A stretch of 64,000 bases of DNA from Candidatus Daviesbacteria bacterium (GTDB lineage Bacteria; Patescibacteriota; Microgenomatia; Daviesbacterales; UBA10151): the NCBI GenBank assembly GCA_016432425.1, contig CP066688.1, positions 726,647 to 790,646 of the forward strand, in the 5' to 3' direction. Positions 3,293-35,009 of the stretch are shown one piece after another. Position 1 is the first letter of the stretch; every line of letters starts with the position of its first letter. The notes beneath the pieces are model-generated. The model had not been told where the DNA came from, ran no database searches, and saw only the letters and a program-made list of their open reading frames with translations. A program made the position numbers and the translations under genes.

Positions 3293-3377
3293 GCCGAGGT
3301 GGCGGAATTGGTATACGCGTACGCTTGAGGTGCGTATCCCGCAAGGGGTGCAGGTTCAAGTCCTGTCCTCGGCACCA
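3293..3377 (+). tRNA. tRNA-Leu (anticodon GAG), type II, CCA encoded
   Basis: Acceptor GCCGAGG/CCTCGGC; anticodon stem TACGC/GCGTA with loop TTGAGGT; long variable arm; T-arm CAGG-TTCAAGT-CCTG; ends ACCA. Confidence 0.8.
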
Positions 3378-4508: not shown

Positions 4509-4880
4509 TAGGAATTTTATCGAACTCGTGGATTTTAGCTTCAGAAAGTTGCTGAAATTCTGTAAAATCTAAACCTATAACCTTATACCCTAACAGGAAT
4601 CGAACTAGCCTCAAGCTCGTTATTTCCCCTCTTGATCAGATTTTTCAAAACTACCCATCCACTTTGACCCGTTCAATGAGCGAGGCTCGCCAAAGGCGGC
4701 CCATAAAATTCTTGCATAACTGCACAAGCCAGTAAATACACAACTTCTTGTATGTCCTTTAGCTCTTCTTCTGATGAATTAGGATAATATCTCTTGATTA
4801 TTTCCAGCGGTAACATTTGCAATTATCACCCCCTTAATCTAAAATTAGAAAGATTTTACGGTTTGTGATCAAGGTATAAT

Positions 4881-6596
4881 ATGATTGAGGCAGAAATGTA
4901 CAAGAAAATAGAAATAAATAGGAAAAATATATTTATTGGAGTTGCATGGCCCTATGTTAATGGAGACATACATATTGGTCATATGGCAGGATATCTTCTT
5001 CCTGCTGATATAATTGCTAGATATTATCGAGCAGATAATTATAAGGTCTTAATGGTATCAGGATCAGATTGTTTTGGAACTCCAATTACCATTGAAGCCG
5101 ATAAAAGAGATTTACCCCCTCAAACTATTGCTGATATCTATCATAAACAAGATGAAAGACTCTTTAAAGAAGTTCTAGGTTTAACATATGATATTTACAC
5201 AAGGACTGATACTGAAAATCATATAAAAACAGTACAAGATGTTTTTATGGGACTTCTTGACAGAGGGTATATTTTTATTGACACCACCAAACAATTCTAT
5301 TCACCTCAAGAAAAAAAATTCCTGCCTGATAGGTATGTTGAAGGCGAGTGTAAAAATTGTGGATATGATGGTGCGAGGGCAGATCAGTGCGAAAACTGTG
5401 GTAAATTATTAGAACAAGATGAATTGATTAATCCAAAGAGTAAACTAACAGAACAAGAAGTTATACTTAAAGATACAGAACATTACTTTTTAGATTGGTC
5501 TCTGTTACAACCACAAATTAATGATTATGTAGCAGGCTCTGGATCGCATTGGAAAAATTGGGTTTTTCAAGAAACACAAGGCTGGCTTAGGAAAGGATTA
5601 AAACCCAGAGCAATCACCAGGGATATTAATTGGGGAGTTCCTTTACCTACGGATAGAATACCTAGTGATAAATTAATAGATAACCATCAAGAAAAACGTC
5701 TTTATGTATGGTTTGATGCCGTGATAGGGTATCTATCTGCTTCAAAACTTTGGGCTCAAGAAAACTCTGAAAACTGGGAAAATTTTTGGTACAATCAAGA
5801 TTCCAAACATTACTATTTTATGGGGAAAGACAATTTGATATTTCACACTATCCTATGGCCAGGACAGTTAATCGGATATGATCCAAAATTACACCTCCCT
5901 GATATGCCTAGTGTAAATATGTTTTACAATTTAGAAGGTCAAAAATTCTCTAAAAGTAAAAATATTACTATTGGCATAGAAGAATTAGTTAATCAATTTG
6001 GTAATGATGCTGTAAGATTTTATACTACCTTAACTATGCCCGAGACAAAAGACGCTAGTTTTAAATTCGATGATTTCATAGAAAAAAATAACCAGTTATT
6101 AGTTGGAAATCTAGGAAATTACATTCATAGAATTTTATCTATTGCGAGTACAGAAGATATCGGAAAAATTGCAGCATACCCTTTGTCTAGTGAGGTAAGT
6201 AAAGCTATAGATACATCCTTTGAAAAGGCTAGGTCTCATATTCAAAATTGTGAATTCAGGAATTATTTAGATGATTTATTAAATCTTTCGGATTTTGGGA
6301 ATAAGTTTTTTAGTTACCAAGAAGTGTGGAAATTAAAAAAAACAGATCGTGAGCAATACTGCAGTGCTTTAAAGCAATTGTATTCAATGATATTAGCGTT
6401 AGGTTATTTAATGGTACCAGTTTTACCGGAAACGTCTACTAGATTAGCACAGATGCTAGAAATTGAAACCTTCGATAAATGGCCTCAGGTAAATGAAGAA
6501 ATAAATAGGATTGAAGATCAACTAAAACAAGTCAAACAACCCATTAAGCCGACACCTTTATTTAGAAAGATTGATCCAAAAGAAACCCTAAAATAA
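4881..6596 (+). CDS. metG: methionine--tRNA ligase (class I aaRS)
   Basis: HIGH motif in PYVNGDIHIGHMAGY; KMSKS-type KFSKSK; zinc knuckle CKNCGY...CENCG; DCFGTPI resembles MetRS DAHGTPI. 571 aa. Confidence 0.9.
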   Translation: MIEAEMYKKIEINRKNIFIGVAWPYVNGDIHIGHMAGYLLPADIIARYYRADNYKVLMVSGSDCFGTPITIEADKRDLPPQTIADIYHKQDERLFKEVLGLTYDIYTRTDTENHIKTVQDVFMGLLDRGYIFIDTTKQFYSPQEKKFLPDRYVEGECKNCGYDGARADQCENCGKLLEQDELINPKSKLTEQEVILKDTEHYFLDWSLLQPQINDYVAGSGSHWKNWVFQETQGWLRKGLKPRAITRDINWGVPLPTDRIPSDKLIDNHQEKRLYVWFDAVIGYLSASKLWAQENSENWENFWYNQDSKHYYFMGKDNLIFHTILWPGQLIGYDPKLHLPDMPSVNMFYNLEGQKFSKSKNITIGIEELVNQFGNDAVRFYTTLTMPETKDASFKFDDFIEKNNQLLVGNLGNYIHRILSIASTEDIGKIAAYPLSSEVSKAIDTSFEKARSHIQNCEFRNYLDDLLNLSDFGNKFFSYQEVWKLKKTDREQYCSALKQLYSMILALGYLMVPVLPETSTRLAQMLEIETFDKWPQVNEEINRIEDQLKQVKQPIKPTPLFRKIDPKETLK

Positions 6597-6664
6597 GTTT
6601 CTACTAAAACCAAAGAAAAAACTGAGTTTCTAAATGTTGTCGAATTTCTTTTTGGCGATTAATA

Positions 6665-7585
6665 CTACCTTTTTTCAAATTCATATATAAAGCATCCAGG
6701 TTTTATGTATATTCCGTTTTCTTTTTGATAGGTGTTAAAATCTTGTTTCAACTCATCAATTATCTCTTCAACATCATTTGATTTGTTAAAATATGTTTCC
6801 ATATGGAAATTCATGAATGTTTCTAGTGCCTCATTCATGGATTCATATCGTATCGGGTCGCCTACTAAATGAGTTGTAGACATTTTTCCGATTCCCTCCC
6901 GTAAACATATATTGGAAACCTCGTCGATTAATAATTTGGATGGAGATTGGATATTGATATCTGAAAATATTGGGAAAACCTTTTTCCATTGTTTAAAAAG
7001 AATAGTTTGCTCTTCACTCTGACTATCAAAGTGAATAATATATAATTTTCCATTTGATTCTAAATTATTTTTTATAAACCTGAGGATGTTATTTTTTACA
7101 TATTCAGATTTTGATGGGTCATGAATCAAATGCTGATGTACTGAATGTGAGAAGCTCCACAAGCTATACACAAAATCATATTTATTTTTGGCGCTAGAGA
7201 AATAGTTAATGGTATCACTGCGGATAAAAGAAATACCTCTTTGATTCCGATATTTTTTTTGGGAATAATCGATCATTTGAGGACTAAGATCAACCATGTC
7301 CAGGGATGTATATCTAGGTATGTGTTCCAGAAAAATATCAGTGGCTCTACCTGAACCAAAGCCCAGTTCAAGCGCTCGTATGATCGGAAGAGGTCTTATT
7401 TTACTGTCCAAATAATTTGAAAAAAGTTTAAGGTCAGTGACGGAGTTAAATACATACTCCTTAAGTATGCTATTATAGTAATCTGGAGGTATATATTCTG
7501 AAATTTTGTCTGCATGTAGCTTGAGCCAAGGATATTTCTGTTGCAAATAGCTTAATTGCATATCCCACTTATGATAAATCATCAT
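6665..7585 (-). CDS. class I SAM-dependent methyltransferase
   Basis: Motif I LELGFGSGRATD (E/DxGxGxG) followed by acidic motif II (DMVDLS). 306 aa with a ~90-aa N-terminal extension. Confidence 0.65.
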   Translation of the reverse strand: MMIYHKWDMQLSYLQQKYPWLKLHADKISEYIPPDYYNSILKEYVFNSVTDLKLFSNYLDSKIRPLPIIRALELGFGSGRATDIFLEHIPRYTSLDMVDLSPQMIDYSQKKYRNQRGISFIRSDTINYFSSAKNKYDFVYSLWSFSHSVHQHLIHDPSKSEYVKNNILRFIKNNLESNGKLYIIHFDSQSEEQTILFKQWKKVFPIFSDINIQSPSKLLIDEVSNICLREGIGKMSTTHLVGDPIRYESMNEALETFMNFHMETYFNKSNDVEEIIDELKQDFNTYQKENGIYIKPGCFIYEFEKR

Positions 7586-10875: not shown

Positions 10876-10945
10876 TTTTTAAAAAAGCTGCTACAAGAAT
10901 TAAGTTTCTAAATACATACTTATACATTTTTTAGTCCTAAAGCAT

Positions 10946-11064
10946 AAGCAGAGCTTGATACTTCGTATTAAGCAGAGCTTGATTTCTAGCAAGCTCGAAA
11001 TTAGACTAAATCAGGTAATAGACCGTCAGATAAGCAGAGCTTGTCTTCGAATAAGCAAAGCTTT
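10946..11064. repeat. cluster of four copies of 12-mer AAGCAGAGCTTG (iteron-like)
   Basis: Exact copies at 10946-10957, 10970-10981, 11032-11043; variant AAGCAAAGCTTT at 11053-11064. Each is a mini-hairpin AAGC-AGA-GCTT. The same 12-mer recurs in tandem 27-nt repeats at 30613-30684. Confidence 0.7.
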
Positions 11065-24912: not shown

Positions 24913-24999
24913 CCCATTCGACTCTGGTTCGACTACTTCGACTGTGCTCAGTACGAGTTCGCTCACCATCGCTCAGGGCTATAGCCGAATTATATAATT
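24910..24999 (+). repeat. 90-bp perfect direct repeat, copy A, starting in the last 3 nt of tRNA-Gln
   Basis: CAGCCCATTCGACTCTGGTTCGACTACTTCGACTGTGCTCAGTACGAGTTCGCTCACCATCGCTCAGGGCTATAGCCGAATTATATAATT is identical to 26110-26199, offset exactly 1200 bp. Confidence 0.9.
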
Positions 25000-25059
25000 G
25001 AATTAATTCAGGATTTAAGTCGAATGGTCCTGAGTGAGCGAAGCGAATCGAAGGATAAC

Positions 25060-27961: not shown

Positions 27962-29020
27962 ATGTTTGATCCTACCTACTCTATCACTACCACAATTTTA
28001 TCCAGAATTGCGGAAATTGCCGAGATTAAAGCAGCGATTGAACGTTCCCGGGTCCTGCCTTTAAACGAGGCCCAACTGCGCCGCCAGGCCATTTTGCGGA
28101 TGGCCCATACTTCTACTTCCATAGAAGGTAATAAATTGGCCCAATTTGAAGTAGGTAAGGTGTTGGAAGGTCAGGTAGTGAGAGCTCCCCAAAAAGATAT
28201 TCTGGAAGTAGAAAATTATTATCAGGCCTTAAAACTTTTAGATGAGCTGTCTAAAAAGAAAAATGATATTACCGAAGAAGAAATCTTGAATCTACATAAA
28301 ATAATTGTTAACGGTTTGGTGGAGCCGGAAAAGATAGGTAAACTTAGGCCCGGTGATGTTTATATTTTAGATGATTTAGGTGATGGCCGGGAGCAATTGC
28401 GTTTTAAAGCCCCACCCGCCAAAGAAGTAAAAAAATTAATTACTGAGCTGCTGGCTTGGTTAAAAGATTCCCGGGAAAAAGGAGTACATCCTATTATCAG
28501 AGCCGGAATCCTGCACTTGCAATTTGTGACTGTCCACCCTTTTACTGATGGTAATGGCCGTCTGGCTAGGCTGCTAACCCAACTGCTGCTTTATCGGGAT
28601 AACTGGGATTTTCGCCGGGTGATTGTTTTGGAAGATTATTATAACCGTGATCGGTTGAGCTATTATAGCGCGGAAAATTACAGCCAGGGCAAAAATTATC
28701 AAAAAGAAATGGATTTTACTCATTGGCTGGAGTATTTTACCACCGGATTTTTGGTGGAGGCAAGACGTGCTTTGGAACAAGTTCAGGCAATTGGTTTTGG
28801 TAAAAAGAGCCGCAAATCCGAACAGATTTTCTTAACTAATGATGAGCTGCAAATGATGGATTTTTTGACTACAGTGGGAAAAATTACTTCGGATGATGTG
28901 ACTGATATTCTAAAGGTGGGCAAAAGATCAGCCCAATTAAAACTAAAACGCCTCTTGGATTATAGATTGATCAAGCAAACCGGTAAGGGTCCGGCTACTT
29001 TCTACACCTTGGCCAAATGA
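27962..29020 (+). CDS. Fic/Doc-family protein (putative AMPylase) with N-terminal inhibitory motif and C-terminal winged-helix
   Basis: Fic motif HPFTDGNGRLARLL (HxFx(D/E)GNGRxxR). N-terminal inhibitory TSIEGN ((S/T)xxxE(G/N)). C-terminal HTH-like DFLTTVGKITSDDVTDILKVGKRSAQ. Confidence 0.85.
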   Translation: MFDPTYSITTTILSRIAEIAEIKAAIERSRVLPLNEAQLRRQAILRMAHTSTSIEGNKLAQFEVGKVLEGQVVRAPQKDILEVENYYQALKLLDELSKKKNDITEEEILNLHKIIVNGLVEPEKIGKLRPGDVYILDDLGDGREQLRFKAPPAKEVKKLITELLAWLKDSREKGVHPIIRAGILHLQFVTVHPFTDGNGRLARLLTQLLLYRDNWDFRRVIVLEDYYNRDRLSYYSAENYSQGKNYQKEMDFTHWLEYFTTGFLVEARRALEQVQAIGFGKKSRKSEQIFLTNDELQMMDFLTTVGKITSDDVTDILKVGKRSAQLKLKRLLDYRLIKQTGKGPATFYTLAK

Positions 29021-30440: not shown

Positions 30441-30508
30441 AACTCAACTATTATAATTCTCCTTAAGGTTTTGGTACAATATAGGGCATGCCGGGGTGGC
30501 GGAAGAAA

Positions 30509-30590
30509 GGGCTAGTGGCGGAATTGGTATACGCGCGCGCCTTAAGAGCGTGTGGGGAAACCCTTGTGGGTTCGAGTCCCACCTAGCCTA
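30509..30590 (+). tRNA. tRNA-Leu (anticodon TAA), type II
   Basis: Acceptor GGGCTAG/CTAGCCT (G1-U72 wobble); anticodon stem CGCGC/GCGTG with loop CTTAAGA; long variable arm TGGGGAAACCCTT; T-arm GTGGG-TTCGAGT-CCCAC. Confidence 0.75.
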
Positions 30591-30596
30591 CATTCT

Positions 30597-30616
30597 CGGG
30601 GACTAGTTCATCGGTA
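30597..30616 (+). repeat. 20-nt duplicate of the tRNA-Pro 5' end (CGGGGACTAGTTCATCGGTA)
   Basis: Identical to 30706-30725, the first 20 nt of the intact tRNA-Pro 109 bp downstream. Confidence 0.85.
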
Positions 30617-30684
30617 AGCAGAGCTTGCCATCTGGTGATGGTAAGCAGAGCTTGCCATCTGGTGATGGTAAGCAGAGCTTGCCA
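30613..30684 (+). repeat. tandem 27-nt repeat GGTAAGCAGAGCTTGCCATCTGGTGAT, 2.7 copies
   Basis: Copies at 30613-30639, 30640-30666 and partial 30667-30684. Contains the 12-mer AAGCAGAGCTTG and the hairpin CCATC-tggt-GATGG. Flanked by inverted repeats GACTAGTTCATCGG / CCAATGAACTGTC. Confidence 0.85.
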
Positions 30685-30705
30685 ATGAACTGTCGGATTA
30701 TATTT

Positions 30706-30777
30706 CGGGGACTAGTTCATCGGTAGAACGCTCGGTTTGGGACCGAGAAGTACAGGGTTCAATTCCCTGGTCCCCGA
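30706..30777 (+). tRNA. tRNA-Pro (anticodon TGG)
   Basis: Acceptor CGGGGAC/GTCCCCG; D-arm GTTC-ATCGGTA-GAAC; anticodon stem CTCGG/CCGAG with loop TTTGGGA; T-arm CAGGG-TTCAATT-CCCTG; discriminator A. Confidence 0.85.
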
Positions 30778-30796
30778 CTCTAATAATTACTCTTCA

Positions 30797-31497: not shown

Positions 31498-31770
31498 TTA
31501 TTTTCTATACACTTCATCATGCGTACCTAGATCTACAAAATATGCGATATCTTTGTCTAGCAGTAAGTAAACCATTCTAAGTCCTTTACTTAGGGAGATA
31601 CTCCATCTATTCGTAAGGTTACCTGTTAATTTATGTGTTCTTAGCGATGGGTGTTTCGGATTTTCTTGAAATAATGCAAGCTGTTTTTCTATTTTTTTGC
31701 TTAGTTTCTTGTCTTTTCTTTTTAATTTAGCAAGTTCACTAATAACTTCAGAAGAAAATTTAACGCGCAT
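31498..31770 (-). CDS. type II toxin, RelE/YafQ-family mRNA interferase
   Basis: HKLTGNLTNRWSISLSKGLRMVYLLLDKDIAYFVDLGTHDEVY matches the YafQ/RelE pattern (H.L.G......R..Y......I....G.H). 90 aa, immediately downstream of the antitoxin. Confidence 0.7.
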   Translation of the reverse strand: MRVKFSSEVISELAKLKRKDKKLSKKIEKQLALFQENPKHPSLRTHKLTGNLTNRWSISLSKGLRMVYLLLDKDIAYFVDLGTHDEVYRK

Positions 31771-31773
31771 TTA

Positions 31774-32037
31774 TTATTTAAGATCTTCAAAAAATTTATG
31801 CATATCTTTAACTTCTACTGCTTTATCATACTCTTCTAGTGCTTTTTTTGTATTTCTTTCTACACGTTCTGAAGCTATAAAAGTTGGATATTCTTCGTTT
31901 TCCACCTCTTTAAGGATTAAATGTTTAACTAATTGAGTCACAGGAACTCCAAGCCTAGCAGCCTTTGACTCTAAGCGATCGTTTAATTGTTCAGAGAGAC
32001 TGATTTTTAGCTGAATTTGTGAAGATATGGTATTCAT
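31774..32037 (-). CDS. type II antitoxin, RelB/DinJ-like (ribbon-helix-helix)
   Basis: 87 aa. N-terminal RHH-like KISLSEQLNDRLESKAARLGVPVTQLVKHLI and an acidic C-terminal tail. 3-nt gap to the toxin gene. Confidence 0.65.
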   Translation of the reverse strand: MNTISSQIQLKISLSEQLNDRLESKAARLGVPVTQLVKHLILKEVENEEYPTFIASERVERNTKKALEEYDKAVEVKDMHKFFEDLK

Positions 32038-34129: not shown

Positions 34130-34417
34130 TTAACTCTTCATTTTATTTTTAAATTCTTCTAAGTAACTTTTTAAGACTACTCTGTCGATTTGAGGAAATA
34201 TATATTCAAATTTATCAGCAGATAAAACAATTTCTGGATTATCCTGAGAAAATCTCAGAACAATAAATTCAGTTATACGCTCCATTAAAATCGGCCTTAT
34301 TTTATCCATTTCTTCTGATGGTAAATTATCTAATTCTAAAAAAATGATGGGATCAAAATAATTCATTTGATTATTCACTTTTATTTTATCCTCTTTTAAT
34401 CTTTTTCCAAAACCCAT
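34130..34417 (-). CDS. hypothetical protein
   Basis: 95-aa ORF, no motif. Overlaps the ImmA-like ORF start by 32 nt. Confidence 0.3.
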   Translation of the reverse strand: MGFGKRLKEDKIKVNNQMNYFDPIIFLELDNLPSEEMDKIRPILMERITEFIVLRFSQDNPEIVLSADKFEYIFPQIDRVVLKSYLEEFKNKMKS

Positions 34418-35009
34418 CCGGAACGATTACTAATTTTAGAAAACTTAGCCTTACTAGAAGACTGTCTGCAGTAACTTCAAATTCTTGTGCTAATTCAGGA
34501 AAAGTATCGGGAAGATCAAAAACTGAACAAGGCGTTGGTATGCGATTTTGGATAACAAATTGATCCCATTTTTCTTTCAAAACTTTTTCCGGCATTAACA
34601 CCATACTTGCAAAAGTTCTTGCCTGTCTTTCAATATAATCAAATAATTTAGTATCCAGTTTTTCTTGCCAAGTAATATATTCCTCTAAACCTTTTGGCCC
34701 ATCTTTACTGTACCAATCTTTATGAAGAAATAAATGACCTATTTCCTCAGCAATAGTAAATCTTATTCTTTCAGGTTGTTTTGTGTACATACCTTCATCA
34801 ATTACAATAGAATCAAAATTCTGATTAATAAACGCATTGACTCCAAAATTTTTGATTAAACCACTGATTAGGATAATTTTAAGTTCCAATTTTAATTCTG
34901 CAATATCCTCAATTGGTACTGGAAGAGTTAAGGAAGAATGATAACTTTCTAAAAATAGATTCGCTTGGTTTTTAACGTCTTGTAAAGTTATGTTGCTGGG
35001 TGTTTTCAT
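34386..35009 (-). CDS. ImmA/IrrE-family (peptidase M78 / DUF955-like) protein with variant EExxH motif
   Basis: FTIAEEIGHLFLH aligns with the M78 (F/L)xxAHELGHxxLH motif, but the first His is replaced by Glu. Immediately downstream of an XRE regulator. Confidence 0.55.
   Translation of the reverse strand: MKTPSNITLQDVKNQANLFLESYHSSLTLPVPIEDIAELKLELKIILISGLIKNFGVNAFINQNFDSIVIDEGMYTKQPERIRFTIAEEIGHLFLHKDWYSKDGPKGLEEYITWQEKLDTKLFDYIERQARTFASMVLMPEKVLKEKWDQFVIQNRIPTPCSVFDLPDTFPELAQEFEVTADSLLVRLSFLKLVIVPDGFWKKIKRG

Follow-up and report, generated by a model that had tools for sequence, protein, structure and literature searches.

A REP-type hairpin array, probably without present use, between the tRNA-Leu and tRNA-Pro genes of a Candidatus Daviesbacteria genome

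The spacer between a tRNA-Leu and a tRNA-Pro gene in a Candidatus Daviesbacteria (CPR) genome is occupied by a REP-type palindromic array of three tandem hairpin units, and this assignment, rather than one to a classical MITE, is well supported. Sequence comparison also argues well for reading the array as a derived insertion at the tRNA-Pro 5' end. The explanation that we prefer for the whole, with somewhat better than even confidence, is that a REP-type array was inserted at tRNA-Pro, was shaped by fold-back re-copying and now probably does nothing useful. Its 12-mer core, AAGCAGAGCTTG, forms the unvarying tip in a family of hairpin repeats that is apparently both unusually widespread and undescribed.

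The spacer and its surroundings

The window analyzed here is a stretch of 64,000 nucleotides (64 kb), to which all positions refer, and it carries the following features.

30509-30591, + strand: tRNA-Leu(TAA), upstream member of the tRNA pair (ARAGORN; Rfam RF00005, 54.4 bits)
30596-30616, + strand: stub, an exact 21-nt copy of tRNA-Pro -1 to +20 (100% identity)
30601-30694, + strand: complete long hairpin of 94 nt, made of stub, array and inverted copy (RNA and ssDNA folds)
30613-30684, + strand: tandem array, 2.7 copies of the 27-nt unit GGTAAGCAGAGCTTGCCATCTGGTGAT (TRF, 100% matches, score 144)
30616-30627, + strand: 12-mer core AAGCAGAGCTTG, copy 1, a REP-type hairpin tip
30643-30654, + strand: core copy 2, at the top of the long hairpin when folded as RNA
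30670-30681, + strand: core copy 3
30682-30694, + strand: inverted copy CCAATGAACTGTC, 3' hairpin arm, imperfect complement of the stub segment GACTAGTTCATCGG
30695-30704, + strand: A/T-rich tail GGATTATATT from hairpin to tRNA-Pro, resembling the leader of the closest relative, L189 (..GGATTAa)
30706-30778, + strand: tRNA-Pro(TGG), intact, its first 20 nt being copy 2 of the direct repeat (ARAGORN; Rfam, 63 bits)
10923-11064, + strand: second cluster of the same hairpin family, between convergent genes (cores at 10946, 10970 and 11032, and a degenerate one at 11053)

A first-pass annotation had described a 20-nt duplication, 2.7 repeats of 27 nt, an inverted complement and the two tRNAs, all of which were recovered in place, and the duplication proved to be slightly longer than described. 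The 20-mer CGGGGACTAGTTCATCGGTA occurs exactly twice in the 64-kb window, at 30597 and 30706 (0.01 expected), within a full direct repeat of 21 nt, TCGGGGACTAGTTCATCGGTA, at 30596-30616 and 30705-30725. The stub is offset from the genuine tRNA-Pro 5' end by 109 nt, with 88 nt between the repeats, and it comprises the tRNA-Pro acceptor 5' strand, the D-stem 5' strand and the D-loop. Each 27-nt unit consists of two small palindromes, GGTAAGC-AGA-GCTTGCC and ATC-TGGT-GAT, and the inverted copy pairs with its stub segment with one bulge and one mismatch.

Folding of the whole spacer predicts a single 94-nt hairpin, with the stub as its 5' arm, at -56.4 kcal/mol as RNA (z = -7.9) and -27 kcal/mol as ssDNA (z = -6.1). 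In the predicted fold of the precursor, this hairpin and the two cloverleaves form separate domains; the hairpin ties up the D-arm portion of the stub, and the cloverleaves are normal, which lends no support to an earlier suggestion that the RNA mimics a tRNA-Pro 5' fragment. Promoter and terminator consensus sites are absent from the spacer, the TATATT of the tail lying too near tRNA +1. Against Rfam 15, only tRNAs reach the gathering threshold, and the best sub-threshold match under permissive thresholds is a generic long hairpin (25 bits, cutoff 80). Given the TRF score, the 12-mer and 20-mer counts and the fold z-scores, this anatomy lies far beyond chance.

Spacers from tRNA-Leu(TAA) to tRNA-Pro at 25 related loci are usually 3-40 nt long (median about 27 nt; at most 40 nt in 15 of the 25), the 12-mer is found near tRNA-Pro at none of 120 tRNA-Pro loci, and the closest tRNA-Pro (L189, 71/73 identical) has a spacer of 17 nt. 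Relatives thus lack the insertion, in keeping with the first-pass reading of the spacer as an insertion. Orthologous loci were sought through TsaC homologues, among which only L119 retains the deacetylase / tRNA-Leu / tRNA-Pro order; synteny was mostly lost, and a DNA scan with a tRNA-Pro 22-mer was used instead. As for the two copies of the direct repeat, comparison with L189 favors neither as the ancestral one.

At up to one mismatch, AAGCAGAGCTTG has six matches in the window (0.31 expected), all of them exact and on the + strand (10946, 10970, 11032, 30616, 30643 and 30670), and the embedded 12-mer is indeed, as had been claimed, the motif found near 11 kb. With the degenerate seventh copy at 11053, the total is seven copies in two extragenic clusters per 64 kb, against 0.3 expected. 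The cluster at 10923-11064 has an outer inverted repeat (10923-10936 / 11004-11017) and no direct repeat of at least 9 nt besides the repeat family itself. The neighbors of the tRNA-Pro locus are Fic, RRM, polysaccharide deacetylase, TsaC and a toxin-antitoxin pair. No integrase, recombinase or transposase was found within about 4-5 kb of the tRNA-Pro spacer, and neither tblastn nor a profile search matched a RAYT in the 64-kb window.

A hairpin family across genomes and its link to RAYT genes

Paired exact copies of AAGCAGAGCTTG, 5-35 nt apart, were found at 115 loci or more in many phyla, against about 0.13 expected, in contigs of one genome per species (expectation: 596 Gb x 2 strands x 31 gap lengths / 4^24); the enrichment supposed at first pass is thus seen both in the window and across genomes. 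Of these, about 14 were set aside as tandem repeats within coding sequence (K-A-E-L-E and similar), where the 12-mer arises by codon usage. The matches include four Daviesbacteria and about 12 other CPR records. Flanks of the core vary among loci and pairing is maintained, with at least four of five further pairs complementary at 148 of 290 cores, against 42 (maximum 58) with shuffled partners; as 5' flank, low-GC loci have (A)T and high-GC loci have C. These hairpins are scattered in arrays across low-GC genomes, several CPR lineages included. Tandem arrays of 2-5 units with a period of 21-43 nt occur at six loci (L005, L007, L008, L010, L044 and L085), and arrays near tRNAs lie on either strand relative to them.

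A de novo search for a recurrent gene family beside the arrays of 40 low-GC loci returned only housekeeping-like genes, and 0.74 Mb of mostly related CPR contigs held no exact 12-mer save at two viral loci. A phage origin was rejected, the paired 12-mer occurring in only two viral contigs, one of which is a coding repeat. Literature searches with the 12-mer and its complement, as DNA and as RNA, returned only unrelated primers, and those on RAYT in CPR and on palindromic elements in tRNA genes returned no description of the AAGCAGAGCTTG family or of the layout described below.

It is in other phyla that the hairpins adjoin transposase genes. RAYTs are HUH/Y1 enzymes acting on single-stranded DNA hairpins. 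In L046, L099 and L011, the genes beside the hairpins are matched by the NCBIfam profile NF047646 ('REP-associated tyrosine transposase') at 94-108 bits, above its cutoff of 80. At four further RAYT genes chosen by protein alone (L245, L248, L251 and L257-260), the core lies within 30-200 nt of the gene ends, exact in three and with one mismatch in one. The RAYT gene is flanked by 12-mer hairpins at all seven loci examined, and inverted core doublets adjoin it in L248 and L257. The genes so flanked form one RAYT clade and come from Planctomycetota, Gammaproteobacteria, Bacteroidota and Ignavibacteriales. No RAYT was found in the low-GC or CPR loci examined, and none of this clade in the same 0.74 Mb of contigs, and only the identity of the 12-mer core would link the CPR copies to RAYT. 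The Y1-like genes near the 12-mer cluster of L054 each have their own, different palindromes and were dismissed as unrelated to the AAGCAGAGCTTG family.

The layout of the spacer, in the order of target copy, hairpins, inverted target copy, tail and target, recurs with a AAGCAGAGCTTG core at eight further loci, namely L010 (25-nt repeat), L115 (21), L047 (13), L097, L102, L081, L054 and L039. The repeat in L047 restores the ATG of an apparent rpsL, and the target in L102 is the 3' end of a tRNA-Gly. The direct repeat, 21 nt here, measures 8-25 nt elsewhere in the family and is absent at many copies; an upstream flank of at least 9 nt is repeated downstream in 12 of 94 clusters against five in a mirrored control, which is a modest signal. 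With other hairpin tips, the same layout is found at CPR tRNA loops, in tRNA-Pro (L167, L188, L234, L203 and L119), tRNA-Gly (L119) and tRNA-Leu (L124 and L207), and two tip sequences are common to different tRNA genes and genomes. In CPR loci, each of the ten upstream stubs has its first base at tRNA +1 and its last in the D-arm region (nt 12-21); as their mirror image, all nine downstream stubs run from the T-arm, mostly the T-loop, to the tRNA 3' terminus. Inserts in relatives measure 27-134 nt. RNA-templated copying from mature tRNA would explain such terminus-bound repeats but is disfavored, since the gene-proximal 3' copies mostly lack CCA.

Origin of the array and competing explanations

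We infer that a hairpin was inserted into a single-stranded loop and that fold-back copying or template switching then regenerated tRNA-Pro. The hairpin would have entered at the exposed single-stranded D-loop of tRNA-Pro, after GGTA, and would have served as primer or trigger for fold-back copying of the target beside it, giving the inverted copy at 30682-30694; synthesis would then have switched back and re-copied the target, giving the direct repeat and an intact tRNA-Pro again. The only survivors would be those events in which the re-copy reached a functional boundary of the interrupted gene, and such a filter would explain why the repeats start at tRNA +1 or -1. Given that the 27-nt copies are 100% identical, the unit may have expanded recently by slippage. 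Y1 (IS200/IS605) transposition makes no sizeable target duplication (PMC2817692), so that the direct and inverted copies require an extra, unproven step. The array is likely co-transcribed with tRNA-Leu and tRNA-Pro, and in the spacer transcript it would form an independent hairpin that sequesters the D-arm part of the dead stub and is removed by an RNase P cut at 30705/30706; it probably has no useful role at present.

A different order of events, with duplication first, seems to us unlikely. Here tRNA-Pro or its 5' part would have been duplicated in tandem, the upstream copy would have become a pseudogene and the REP hairpin would have arrived later in the dead D-loop; the remainder of the dead copy would have decayed or been deleted, and the seeming inverted copy would be what is left of the D-stem 3' strand after palindrome-correcting template switches had sharpened it. 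Several loci are consistent with this order: the upstream copy of L119 still has both the D-stem 3' strand and the anticodon stem (GAAGAACGCTCG...CGAGG), with hairpins inserted in both loops, L234 contains another tRNA-Pro copy whose D-loop bears a 65-nt insertion and which has no restoring repeat, and tandem 5' halves occur in L142, L145, L175 and L230. In the spacer itself, the sequence after the array, ATGAACTGTCGGATT, by manual count shares 10 of the first 15 aligned positions with tRNA-Pro nt 20-34, which fits a decayed duplicate, and hairpins are documented to arise and be perfected through template switching (PMC8794818). However, the stub, with one bulge and one mismatch across 14 of its positions, is a better partner for the inverted copy than is the D-stem region of the tRNA, the same layout with the same 12-mer is found at non-tRNA targets, and the exact +1 start of all stubs would be left unexplained. 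Simple tandem duplication was itself rejected, as the leader that precedes the stub is not found again in the tails. Quite improbable, in our view, is the integrative-element scar in the 5' half of tRNA-Pro that the first-pass annotation had offered, whereby a recombinase crossed over in the D-loop, the element brought a copy of nt 1-20 and its body was later deleted, leaving att repeats and a remnant. The direct repeat has its boundary exactly at the tRNA end, like the att repeats of tRNA-targeting elements, 17-nt repeats from T-loop to 3' end in relatives resemble classical att sites, and the toxin-antitoxin pair is found a few kb downstream, as is an M78 peptidase gene. Elements replacing the 5' end of a tRNA gene were reportedly described by Zhao and Williams in 2002. 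Against such a scar stand the lack of an integrase or recombinase within about 4-5 kb, the 88 nt between the repeats, nearly all of which are REP-type array and target-derived inverted copy, and the occurrence of the same architecture at non-tRNA sites with repeats of 8-25 nt; moreover, with inserts as small as those in relatives, every case would need reduction to almost nothing.

Selection for the hairpin as such would make stub and inverted copy a functional RNA structure of the tRNA-Leu/tRNA-Pro precursor, one that might, for instance, guide processing or folding or persist as a stable small RNA; the 12-mer would merely be its current tip. The very stable fold agrees with this, and hairpins of the same design stand upstream of tRNA-Pro in L167, L188 and L234, where the upper stems differ and the pairing is kept (AGCG/CGCT, AGC/GCT, AGC/GTT, TAAGC/GCTTG) and each stub is identical to its own tRNA although the tRNAs differ. 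We nevertheless think a functional leader very unlikely, because the design is present in only about six of some 110 distinct tRNA-Pro loci and absent in the closest relatives, its tips belong to repeat families found elsewhere too, it is mirrored at 3' ends and at protein-gene starts, and the arrays take either strand; it also matches no Rfam family and comes with no promoter- or terminator-like site. What the first-pass annotation called a MITE-like insertion stands insofar as this is a small, non-autonomous palindromic insertion with a duplication of the tRNA-Pro 5' end, but the class does not. A classical MITE would be a deletion derivative of a DDE-transposase IS, with terminal inverted repeats and a target-site duplication from a staggered cut; the spacer is, like one, small, palindromic, non-coding, multi-copy and flanked by direct repeats. 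We consider that origin highly improbable, as the length of the direct repeat, variable between copies, already contradicts it, the outer arms derive from the target rather than the element, no transposase is near and no DDE-type parent was seen; the repeat matches the REP hairpins that flank RAYT genes, and the associated gene in other genomes is a Y1/RAYT gene. An assembly artifact, by fold-back or by collapse or expansion of a repeat in a metagenome-assembled genome, is scarcely credible: perfect tandem and palindromic repeats are error-prone, and the copy number of the 27-mer especially could be wrong, but the same core and architecture appear in more than 100 independent assemblies, isolates and long-read chromosomes included, and the downstream tRNA-Pro is intact.

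Beyond the preferred reading, a REP-type insertion re-copied by fold-back, it can be speculated that two linked possibilities hold together, which we regard as rather unlikely. One is that AAGCAGAGCTTG is the recognition tip of a single ancient or highly transferable RAYT clade, whose substrate would be invariant from Planctomycetota to CPR. The other is that an undescribed process in CPR inserts family-specific hairpins in tRNA D- and T-loops and other exposed sites, and that the same event may regenerate the gene via one inverted and one direct copy of the segment from loop to terminus, in what would be a self-repairing mode of hairpin insertion. REP/RAYT systems are regarded as lineage-specific and mostly vertically inherited, and they have been studied almost only in Proteobacteria. 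An invariant-tip RAYT clade, if true, would contradict that view; a letter-identical tip across phyla and ultra-small CPR genomes would be a clean model for Y1 hairpin recognition and would help trace REP/RAYT transfer. The kind of element is in itself ordinary, and the pattern of copy plus hairpin recurs at other tRNA genes. Its recurrent layout of stub, hairpin, inverted copy, tail and intact gene suggests a survival route for essential single-copy genes of minimal genomes hit by palindromic DNA, and is a signature that can be searched genome-wide. We contend that tRNA-end fragments beside CPR tRNA genes should not necessarily be annotated as prophage att sites.

Comparison with known systems

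Two repeat systems were considered and rejected, a CRISPR array since the 27-nt units run head-to-tail without spacers, and the RNA repeats of a type III toxin-antitoxin system since tRNA-Pro and TsaC lie downstream and other arrays have no recurrent downstream gene. Att-site repeats left in tRNA genes by integrative elements were reportedly treated by Williams in 2002 (NAR). Like these, the direct repeat is a tRNA segment ending at a tRNA terminus, with the gene kept intact and the other boundary in a loop; unlike them, it is the 5' and not the 3' part, bounded in the D-loop rather than the anticodon or T-loop, with a short insert, no integrase, and an inverted target copy and a dispersed hairpin repeat at the junction. 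In the E. coli tyrT operon, repeats in 178-nt tandem units carry the tRNA-Tyr 3' end; the partial tRNA copies in a tRNA operon spacer are alike, but tyrT has 3' fragments and neither a hairpin array nor a dispersed family.

Kugelberg and Roth are said to have worked on tandem inversion duplication. With this and with template switching and quasi-palindrome mutagenesis (PMC8794818, PMC7202029), the spacer shares the direct-inverted-direct order and a hairpin stem prolonged into the flanks, both expected products of fold-back copying. Template-switch events copy local sequence only, whereas the first junction here is occupied by a foreign, multi-copy hairpin family, and tRNA loops are specifically where the outcome recurs. 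Prokaryotic MITEs (PMC11602168) are likewise small, non-autonomous, multi-copy and provided with inverted repeats, but the spacer differs in its long and variable target duplication, its target-derived arms and an association with Y1 rather than DDE enzymes. The GC-cluster or hairpin elements of fungal mitochondria (PMC4478555) are also tiny, mobile, non-coding palindromes between or in genes, near tRNAs too, although sequence and hosts are unrelated and theirs is a fixed short target repeat.

Closest in kind are the REP/BIME repeats and RAYTs of E. coli, Pseudomonas and Stenotrophomonas (Nunvar 2010, PMC2817692; Bertels and Rainey 2011, PMC3116915; Bertels 2017, PMC5581495). The AAGCAGAGCTTG family departs from them in lacking the classical GTAG-type tag at the 5' hairpin foot and in conserving the tip of the hairpin instead of its foot; its core is identical across phyla, whereas described REPs are lineage-specific, and the low-GC copies have locus-specific, target-derived stems with direct and inverted target copies, which were not found reported for REPs. 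Nor do the cores form a REPIN, an inverted REP doublet acting as the mobile unit, those of the window being all direct. What the two share is short, imperfect, extragenic palindromes that form hairpins (here by fold and by flank pairing), often in tandem or mosaic clusters, with BIME-like arrays both in this spacer and elsewhere, and the flanking of a single-copy Y1 (IS200-like) transposase gene by the same repeat, as at each of the RAYT loci examined.

The tRNA-Leu/tRNA-Pro spacer and its surroundings

Two tRNA genes, a cluster of hairpin repeats and several accessory genes of the window are considered here.

Features of the window
10923-11064: another cluster of 12-mer repeats, three exact copies and one degenerate copy
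27962-29020: Fic-domain gene, upstream of the tRNA pair
30509-30591: tRNA-Leu(TAA)
30706-30778: tRNA-Pro(TGG)
31498-32037, minus strand: RelE/ParE-family toxin and ribbon-helix-helix antitoxin, just downstream of TsaC
34130-35009, minus strand: M78 (IrrE-like) peptidase gene, 3 kb past the toxin-antitoxin pair

The 114-nt spacer between the two tRNA genes harbors a 21-nt direct repeat, TCGGGGACTAGTTCATCGGTA, of which the copy at 30705-30725 spans tRNA-Pro position -1 to +20 and the copy at 30596-30616 is a stub, that is, a partial tRNA-end copy beside the intact gene. It also contains 2.7 tandem copies (100% identity) of GGTAAGCAGAGCTTGCCATCTGGTGAT as well as an inverted, imperfect stub copy, CCAATGAACTGTC, at 30682-30694; everything listed for this spacer in the first-pass annotation (a 20-nt duplication, tandem units and inverted copy) is present. 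Each 27-nt unit consists of two small palindromes, and therefore the whole of 30601-30694 folds as one long hairpin, both as RNA (-56.4 kcal/mol, z = -7.9) and as ssDNA (-27 kcal/mol, z = -6.1); this is the spacer fold that the annotation had proposed to examine. In a predicted fold of the 311-nt precursor region, the hairpin and both cloverleaves form separate domains. The 12-mer AAGCAGAGCTTG, correctly recognized earlier as common to the spacer and the cluster near 11.0 kb, is found as six exact copies in the window against 0.31 expected, always on the plus strand and only at these two sites. Among the 13 window tRNAs, only tRNA-Pro has a stub of at least 12 nt.

A segment resembling a tRNA-Leu 5' end, GCCGGGGTGGCGGAA (30490-30504), ends 4 nt before tRNA-Leu(TAA). 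It is identical at 14/15 positions to tRNA-Leu(GAG) at 3293, likewise at 14/15 to tRNA-Leu(TAA) of the relative L235, and unlike the acceptor stem of the window tRNA-Leu(TAA), GGGCTAG. The latter gene may be a replacement of an older copy whose 5' stub remains.

When metagenomes were scanned with 22 nt of tRNA-Pro, 120 loci were obtained, among which the order tRNA-Leu(TAA), tRNA-Pro is common. Spacers are at most 40 nt in 15 of the 25 measured, many of them 3-27 nt, and the 12-mer is near tRNA-Pro in 0/120 loci. The closest tRNA-Pro (L189, 71/73 identical) lies 17 nt after tRNA-Leu and has a leader end, GGATTAa, resembling the window tail GGATTAtattt, while the spacer of L205 and L232, ATC or ATT, is like the ACATTC preceding the window's stub. 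Judged by these related sequences, the long spacer is clearly new, which upholds its earlier reading as an insertion.

Downstream of tRNA-Pro lies a gene for a TsaC/Sua5-type threonylcarbamoyl-AMP synthase, whose next best homologue after a 100%-identical Daviesbacteria protein is 71% identical. In the locus of this homologue (L116), there are no tRNAs upstream of TsaC, and a variant core, cataAGCGGAGCTTacgacgctttgcgtc, is located in the intergenic region at 240-300. The toxin-antitoxin, M78 peptidase and Fic genes are like the cargo of mobile elements. Two convergent genes, one for a nucleotidyltransferase-domain protein and the other an unannotated 146-aa ORF, leave a gap of 395 nt that holds the 11-kb cluster. 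This cluster includes an outer inverted repeat, and its flanks show no direct repeat other than the 12-mer repeat family.

A hairpin family beside REP-associated tyrosine transposases

One genome per species was scanned for two exact 12-mers 5-35 nt apart, and at least 115 loci were recovered against ~0.13 expected by chance according to our own estimate. Among the matches listed, ~14 loci were set aside as coding tandem repeats (K-A-E-L-E) and the remainder are non-coding hairpins, in which a constant AAGC-AGA-GCTT(G) is enclosed by flanks that differ by locus yet are complementary, such as cgttcccAAGCAGAGCTTGggaacgag in Planctomycetota and Gamma- and Deltaproteobacteria, and tatAAGCAGAGCTTGata in low-GC genomes. 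The low-GC carriers among the matches listed include four Daviesbacteria, along with around twelve further records from CPR. At least four of five further flank pairs are formed in 148/290 cores, compared with 42 (maximum 58) when flank partners are shuffled. The nucleotide preceding the core is mostly C in the high-GC copies (81%) and mostly T in the low-GC ones (72%); in the latter it is never G and is therefore able to pair with the final G. Arrays like that of the window, with 2-5 units and a period of 21-43 nt, are found in L005, L007, L008, L010, L044 and L085. No Rfam family covers the 12-mer hairpins, and a literature search did not find the 12-mer in a relevant context.

At one locus (L046), a 177-aa gene has a two-hairpin unit on both sides, and homologues at L099 and L011 also adjoin hairpins. 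All three genes match the NCBIfam profile NF047646, 'REP-associated tyrosine transposase' (RAYT), at 94-108 bits (cutoff 80 bits), and the clade of the L046 gene includes >7,000 relatives. As an unbiased test, four further clade members were picked by protein identity alone, from Ignavibacteriales, two Planctomycetota lineages and one further lineage. In all four the core lies 30-200 nt from the gene ends, exact in three and as AAGCgGAGCTTG in one, with inverted doublets of the hairpin in the Planctomycetota loci, giving a core beside a RAYT in 7/7 loci in total. A hairpin beside a RAYT is the arrangement defining REP (short palindromic extragenic repeat) sequences and RAYTs (PMC2817692, PMC3116915, PMC5581495). 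What weakens this link is that no RAYT of this clade was found in the 64-kb window, in the 12-mer loci of low-GC genomes or in 0.74 Mb of further contigs, mostly from CPR. The exact 12-mer is absent from these contigs except for two viral loci, and the family is therefore lineage-restricted in CPR.

Upstream of RAYT genes of the same clade in L245 and L251 there are variant hairpins, CAAACTCTGTTTG, in which core G-C pairs are replaced by A-T pairs; they may represent a compensatory change inside the conserved tip. Also, L054 contains two paralogous Y1-transposase-like genes (1977-2749 and 6423-7196, 49% identical). The inverted repeats around each gene are its own and have no relation to the 12-mer; L054 is from a low-GC gammaproteobacterial genome, in which the pair probably represents two additional REP/RAYT-like or IS200-like units.

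The same layout at other sites

In several low-GC loci, the sequence directly 5' of the first core recurs 13-45 nt past the last core, and an inverted copy of the repeat's 3' part directly follows the array. This layout is seen in L010 (direct repeat of 25 nt), L115 (21), L047 (13), L097, L102, L081, L054 and L039. The array of L047 (minus strand, ~6968) follows the fourth codon of a gene that reads as rpsL, encoding ribosomal protein S12 (MPTINQLVKKGRKPVV). Its 13-nt repeat starts 2 nt ahead of the ATG, and the gene start was therefore interrupted and then rebuilt, with the tail providing AGGT 9 nt before the ATG and the old start remaining as a 7-codon mini-ORF. In L102 the repeated piece is a tRNA-Gly 3' end. 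Overall the signal is modest, with direct repeats of at least 9 nt in 12/94 clusters versus 5 in the control.

The layout is also found at tRNA genes with other hairpin tips. L167 and L188 read CGGAGACTAGTTCATCGG-agcgc..gctaa-CCGATGAAC-a(c)ataa-tRNA-Pro, and L234, L203 and L119 are analogous. When reduced to a single 27-nt unit, the window hairpin aligns column for column with these hairpins, the upper-stem pairs being altered and the pairing kept. Among 264 distinct tRNAs in CPR loci, 10, including Pro, Gly and Leu genes, have an upstream 5'-end copy of at least 12 nt, and all 10 copies begin at tRNA position 1 and stop within the D-arm region (nt 12-21). Downstream 3'-end copies accompany nine of the 264; all nine reach the 3' terminus, mostly as 17 nt from the T-loop to position 74, and mirror the upstream set (tRNA, tail, inverted copy, hairpin tip, stub). 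Two tip sequences are common to different tRNA genes of different genomes: GYTAGTC..GACTGGTCCTGCCA at tRNA-Pro of L203 and tRNA-Gly of L119 (29/37 identical by manual count), and CAGGGAGCGAAGCGAGC in L119 and L228. L119, a Daviesbacteria genome (GCA_030650035.1), has stubs at three tRNA genes (200-1230 and 4630-4780): a 5' and a 3' stub at tRNA-Pro, the former with a longer decayed tRNA copy carrying hairpins in its D- and anticodon loops, a 3' stub at tRNA-Leu(TAA) and a 21-nt 5' stub at tRNA-Gly(TCC).

Some side observations also concern tRNA genes. In the window, downstream of tRNA-Gln (24917-25046), a ttcgact motif is repeated and a ..CCTGAGTGAGCGAAGCGA segment resembles the CAGGGAGCGAAGCGAGC tip of the L119 and L228 3' stub modules. 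About 30-160 nt downstream of tRNA-Pro, L234 has a second tRNA-Pro copy whose D-loop is interrupted by a 65-nt hairpin-containing insertion, without a restoring repeat. At L142/L173, L145/L193, L175/L181 and L230, 5' halves of different tRNA-Pro alleles stand in tandem, each of them broken off in the anticodon loop between GGTTTG and CACT.... A palindromic unit, TTTGCACTTGAAAA / TTTTCAGTGTAAA, is repeated at the joins and also lies on either side of the intact gene. This unit is a different repeat family, and the tandem halves possibly reflect a different insertion process.

Origin of the layout and comparison with known systems

A REP-family array thus occupies the place of the relatives' short spacer, between a direct copy of the tRNA 5' end and an inverted one, and this stub-hairpin-inverted copy design is recurrent. 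Y1 enzymes act on ssDNA, and a single-stranded tRNA gene exposes its D- and T-loops. We propose that the hairpin would enter such a loop, that fold-back priming would copy the adjoining target in reverse, and that synthesis would then return to the template and copy the target again, with the array later lengthening by slippage. Should re-copying lengths fall off steeply, the need to keep the gene intact would select for repeats that begin exactly at a functional boundary, which could explain the anchoring at +1 and position 74, the ATG-anchored repeat of L047, and why the harmless 11-kb site has no such repeat. Template switching over short distances is documented to build and perfect hairpins (PMC8794818, PMC7202029). 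Known IS200/IS605-type transposition, however, produces no sizeable duplication (PMC2817692), and the extra step is therefore a genuine gap in the fold-back model. Copying from mature tRNA would also fit terminus-anchored repeats and is not favored, since most gene-proximal 3' copies lack CCA.

The fold-back model has to be weighed against other readings. That a tRNA duplication came first and the hairpin was inserted later is genuinely supported by L119 and L234, as well as by the resemblance (10/15) between the sequence behind the array and tRNA nt 20-34, but it leaves the tails, the +1 anchoring and the non-tRNA cases unexplained. Repeats bounded by a tRNA terminus fit the scar of an integrative element at tRNA-Pro, as suggested in the first-pass annotation, although there is no recombinase within about 4-5 kb of the tRNA pair and the insert is a hairpin repeat only. 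The covarying stems of L167, L188 and L234 likewise agree with a selected leader RNA; against it, the structure occurs rarely and is missing in the closest relatives, its tips are mobile, it lies on either strand relative to neighboring tRNAs, and regulatory signals are absent. The variable repeat length contradicts a classical MITE, and the many independent assemblies contradict an assembly artefact. The MITE-like insertion proposed earlier is borne out in part: an insertion with target duplication stands, but the element is best read as being of REP type.

The spacer is in kind a selfish palindromic repeat and is not categorically new. Three features are worth following up: the invariant cross-phylum core and its presence in CPR genomes, both of which appear to be undescribed, and the recurrent gene-regenerating layout at tRNA loops, which also appears undescribed. 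The 12-mer hairpins resemble REP/RAYT systems in flanking a RAYT gene at all seven RAYT loci examined; in contrast to described REPs, they have no GTAG tag, their conserved portion is the hairpin tip, and their core is identical across phyla.
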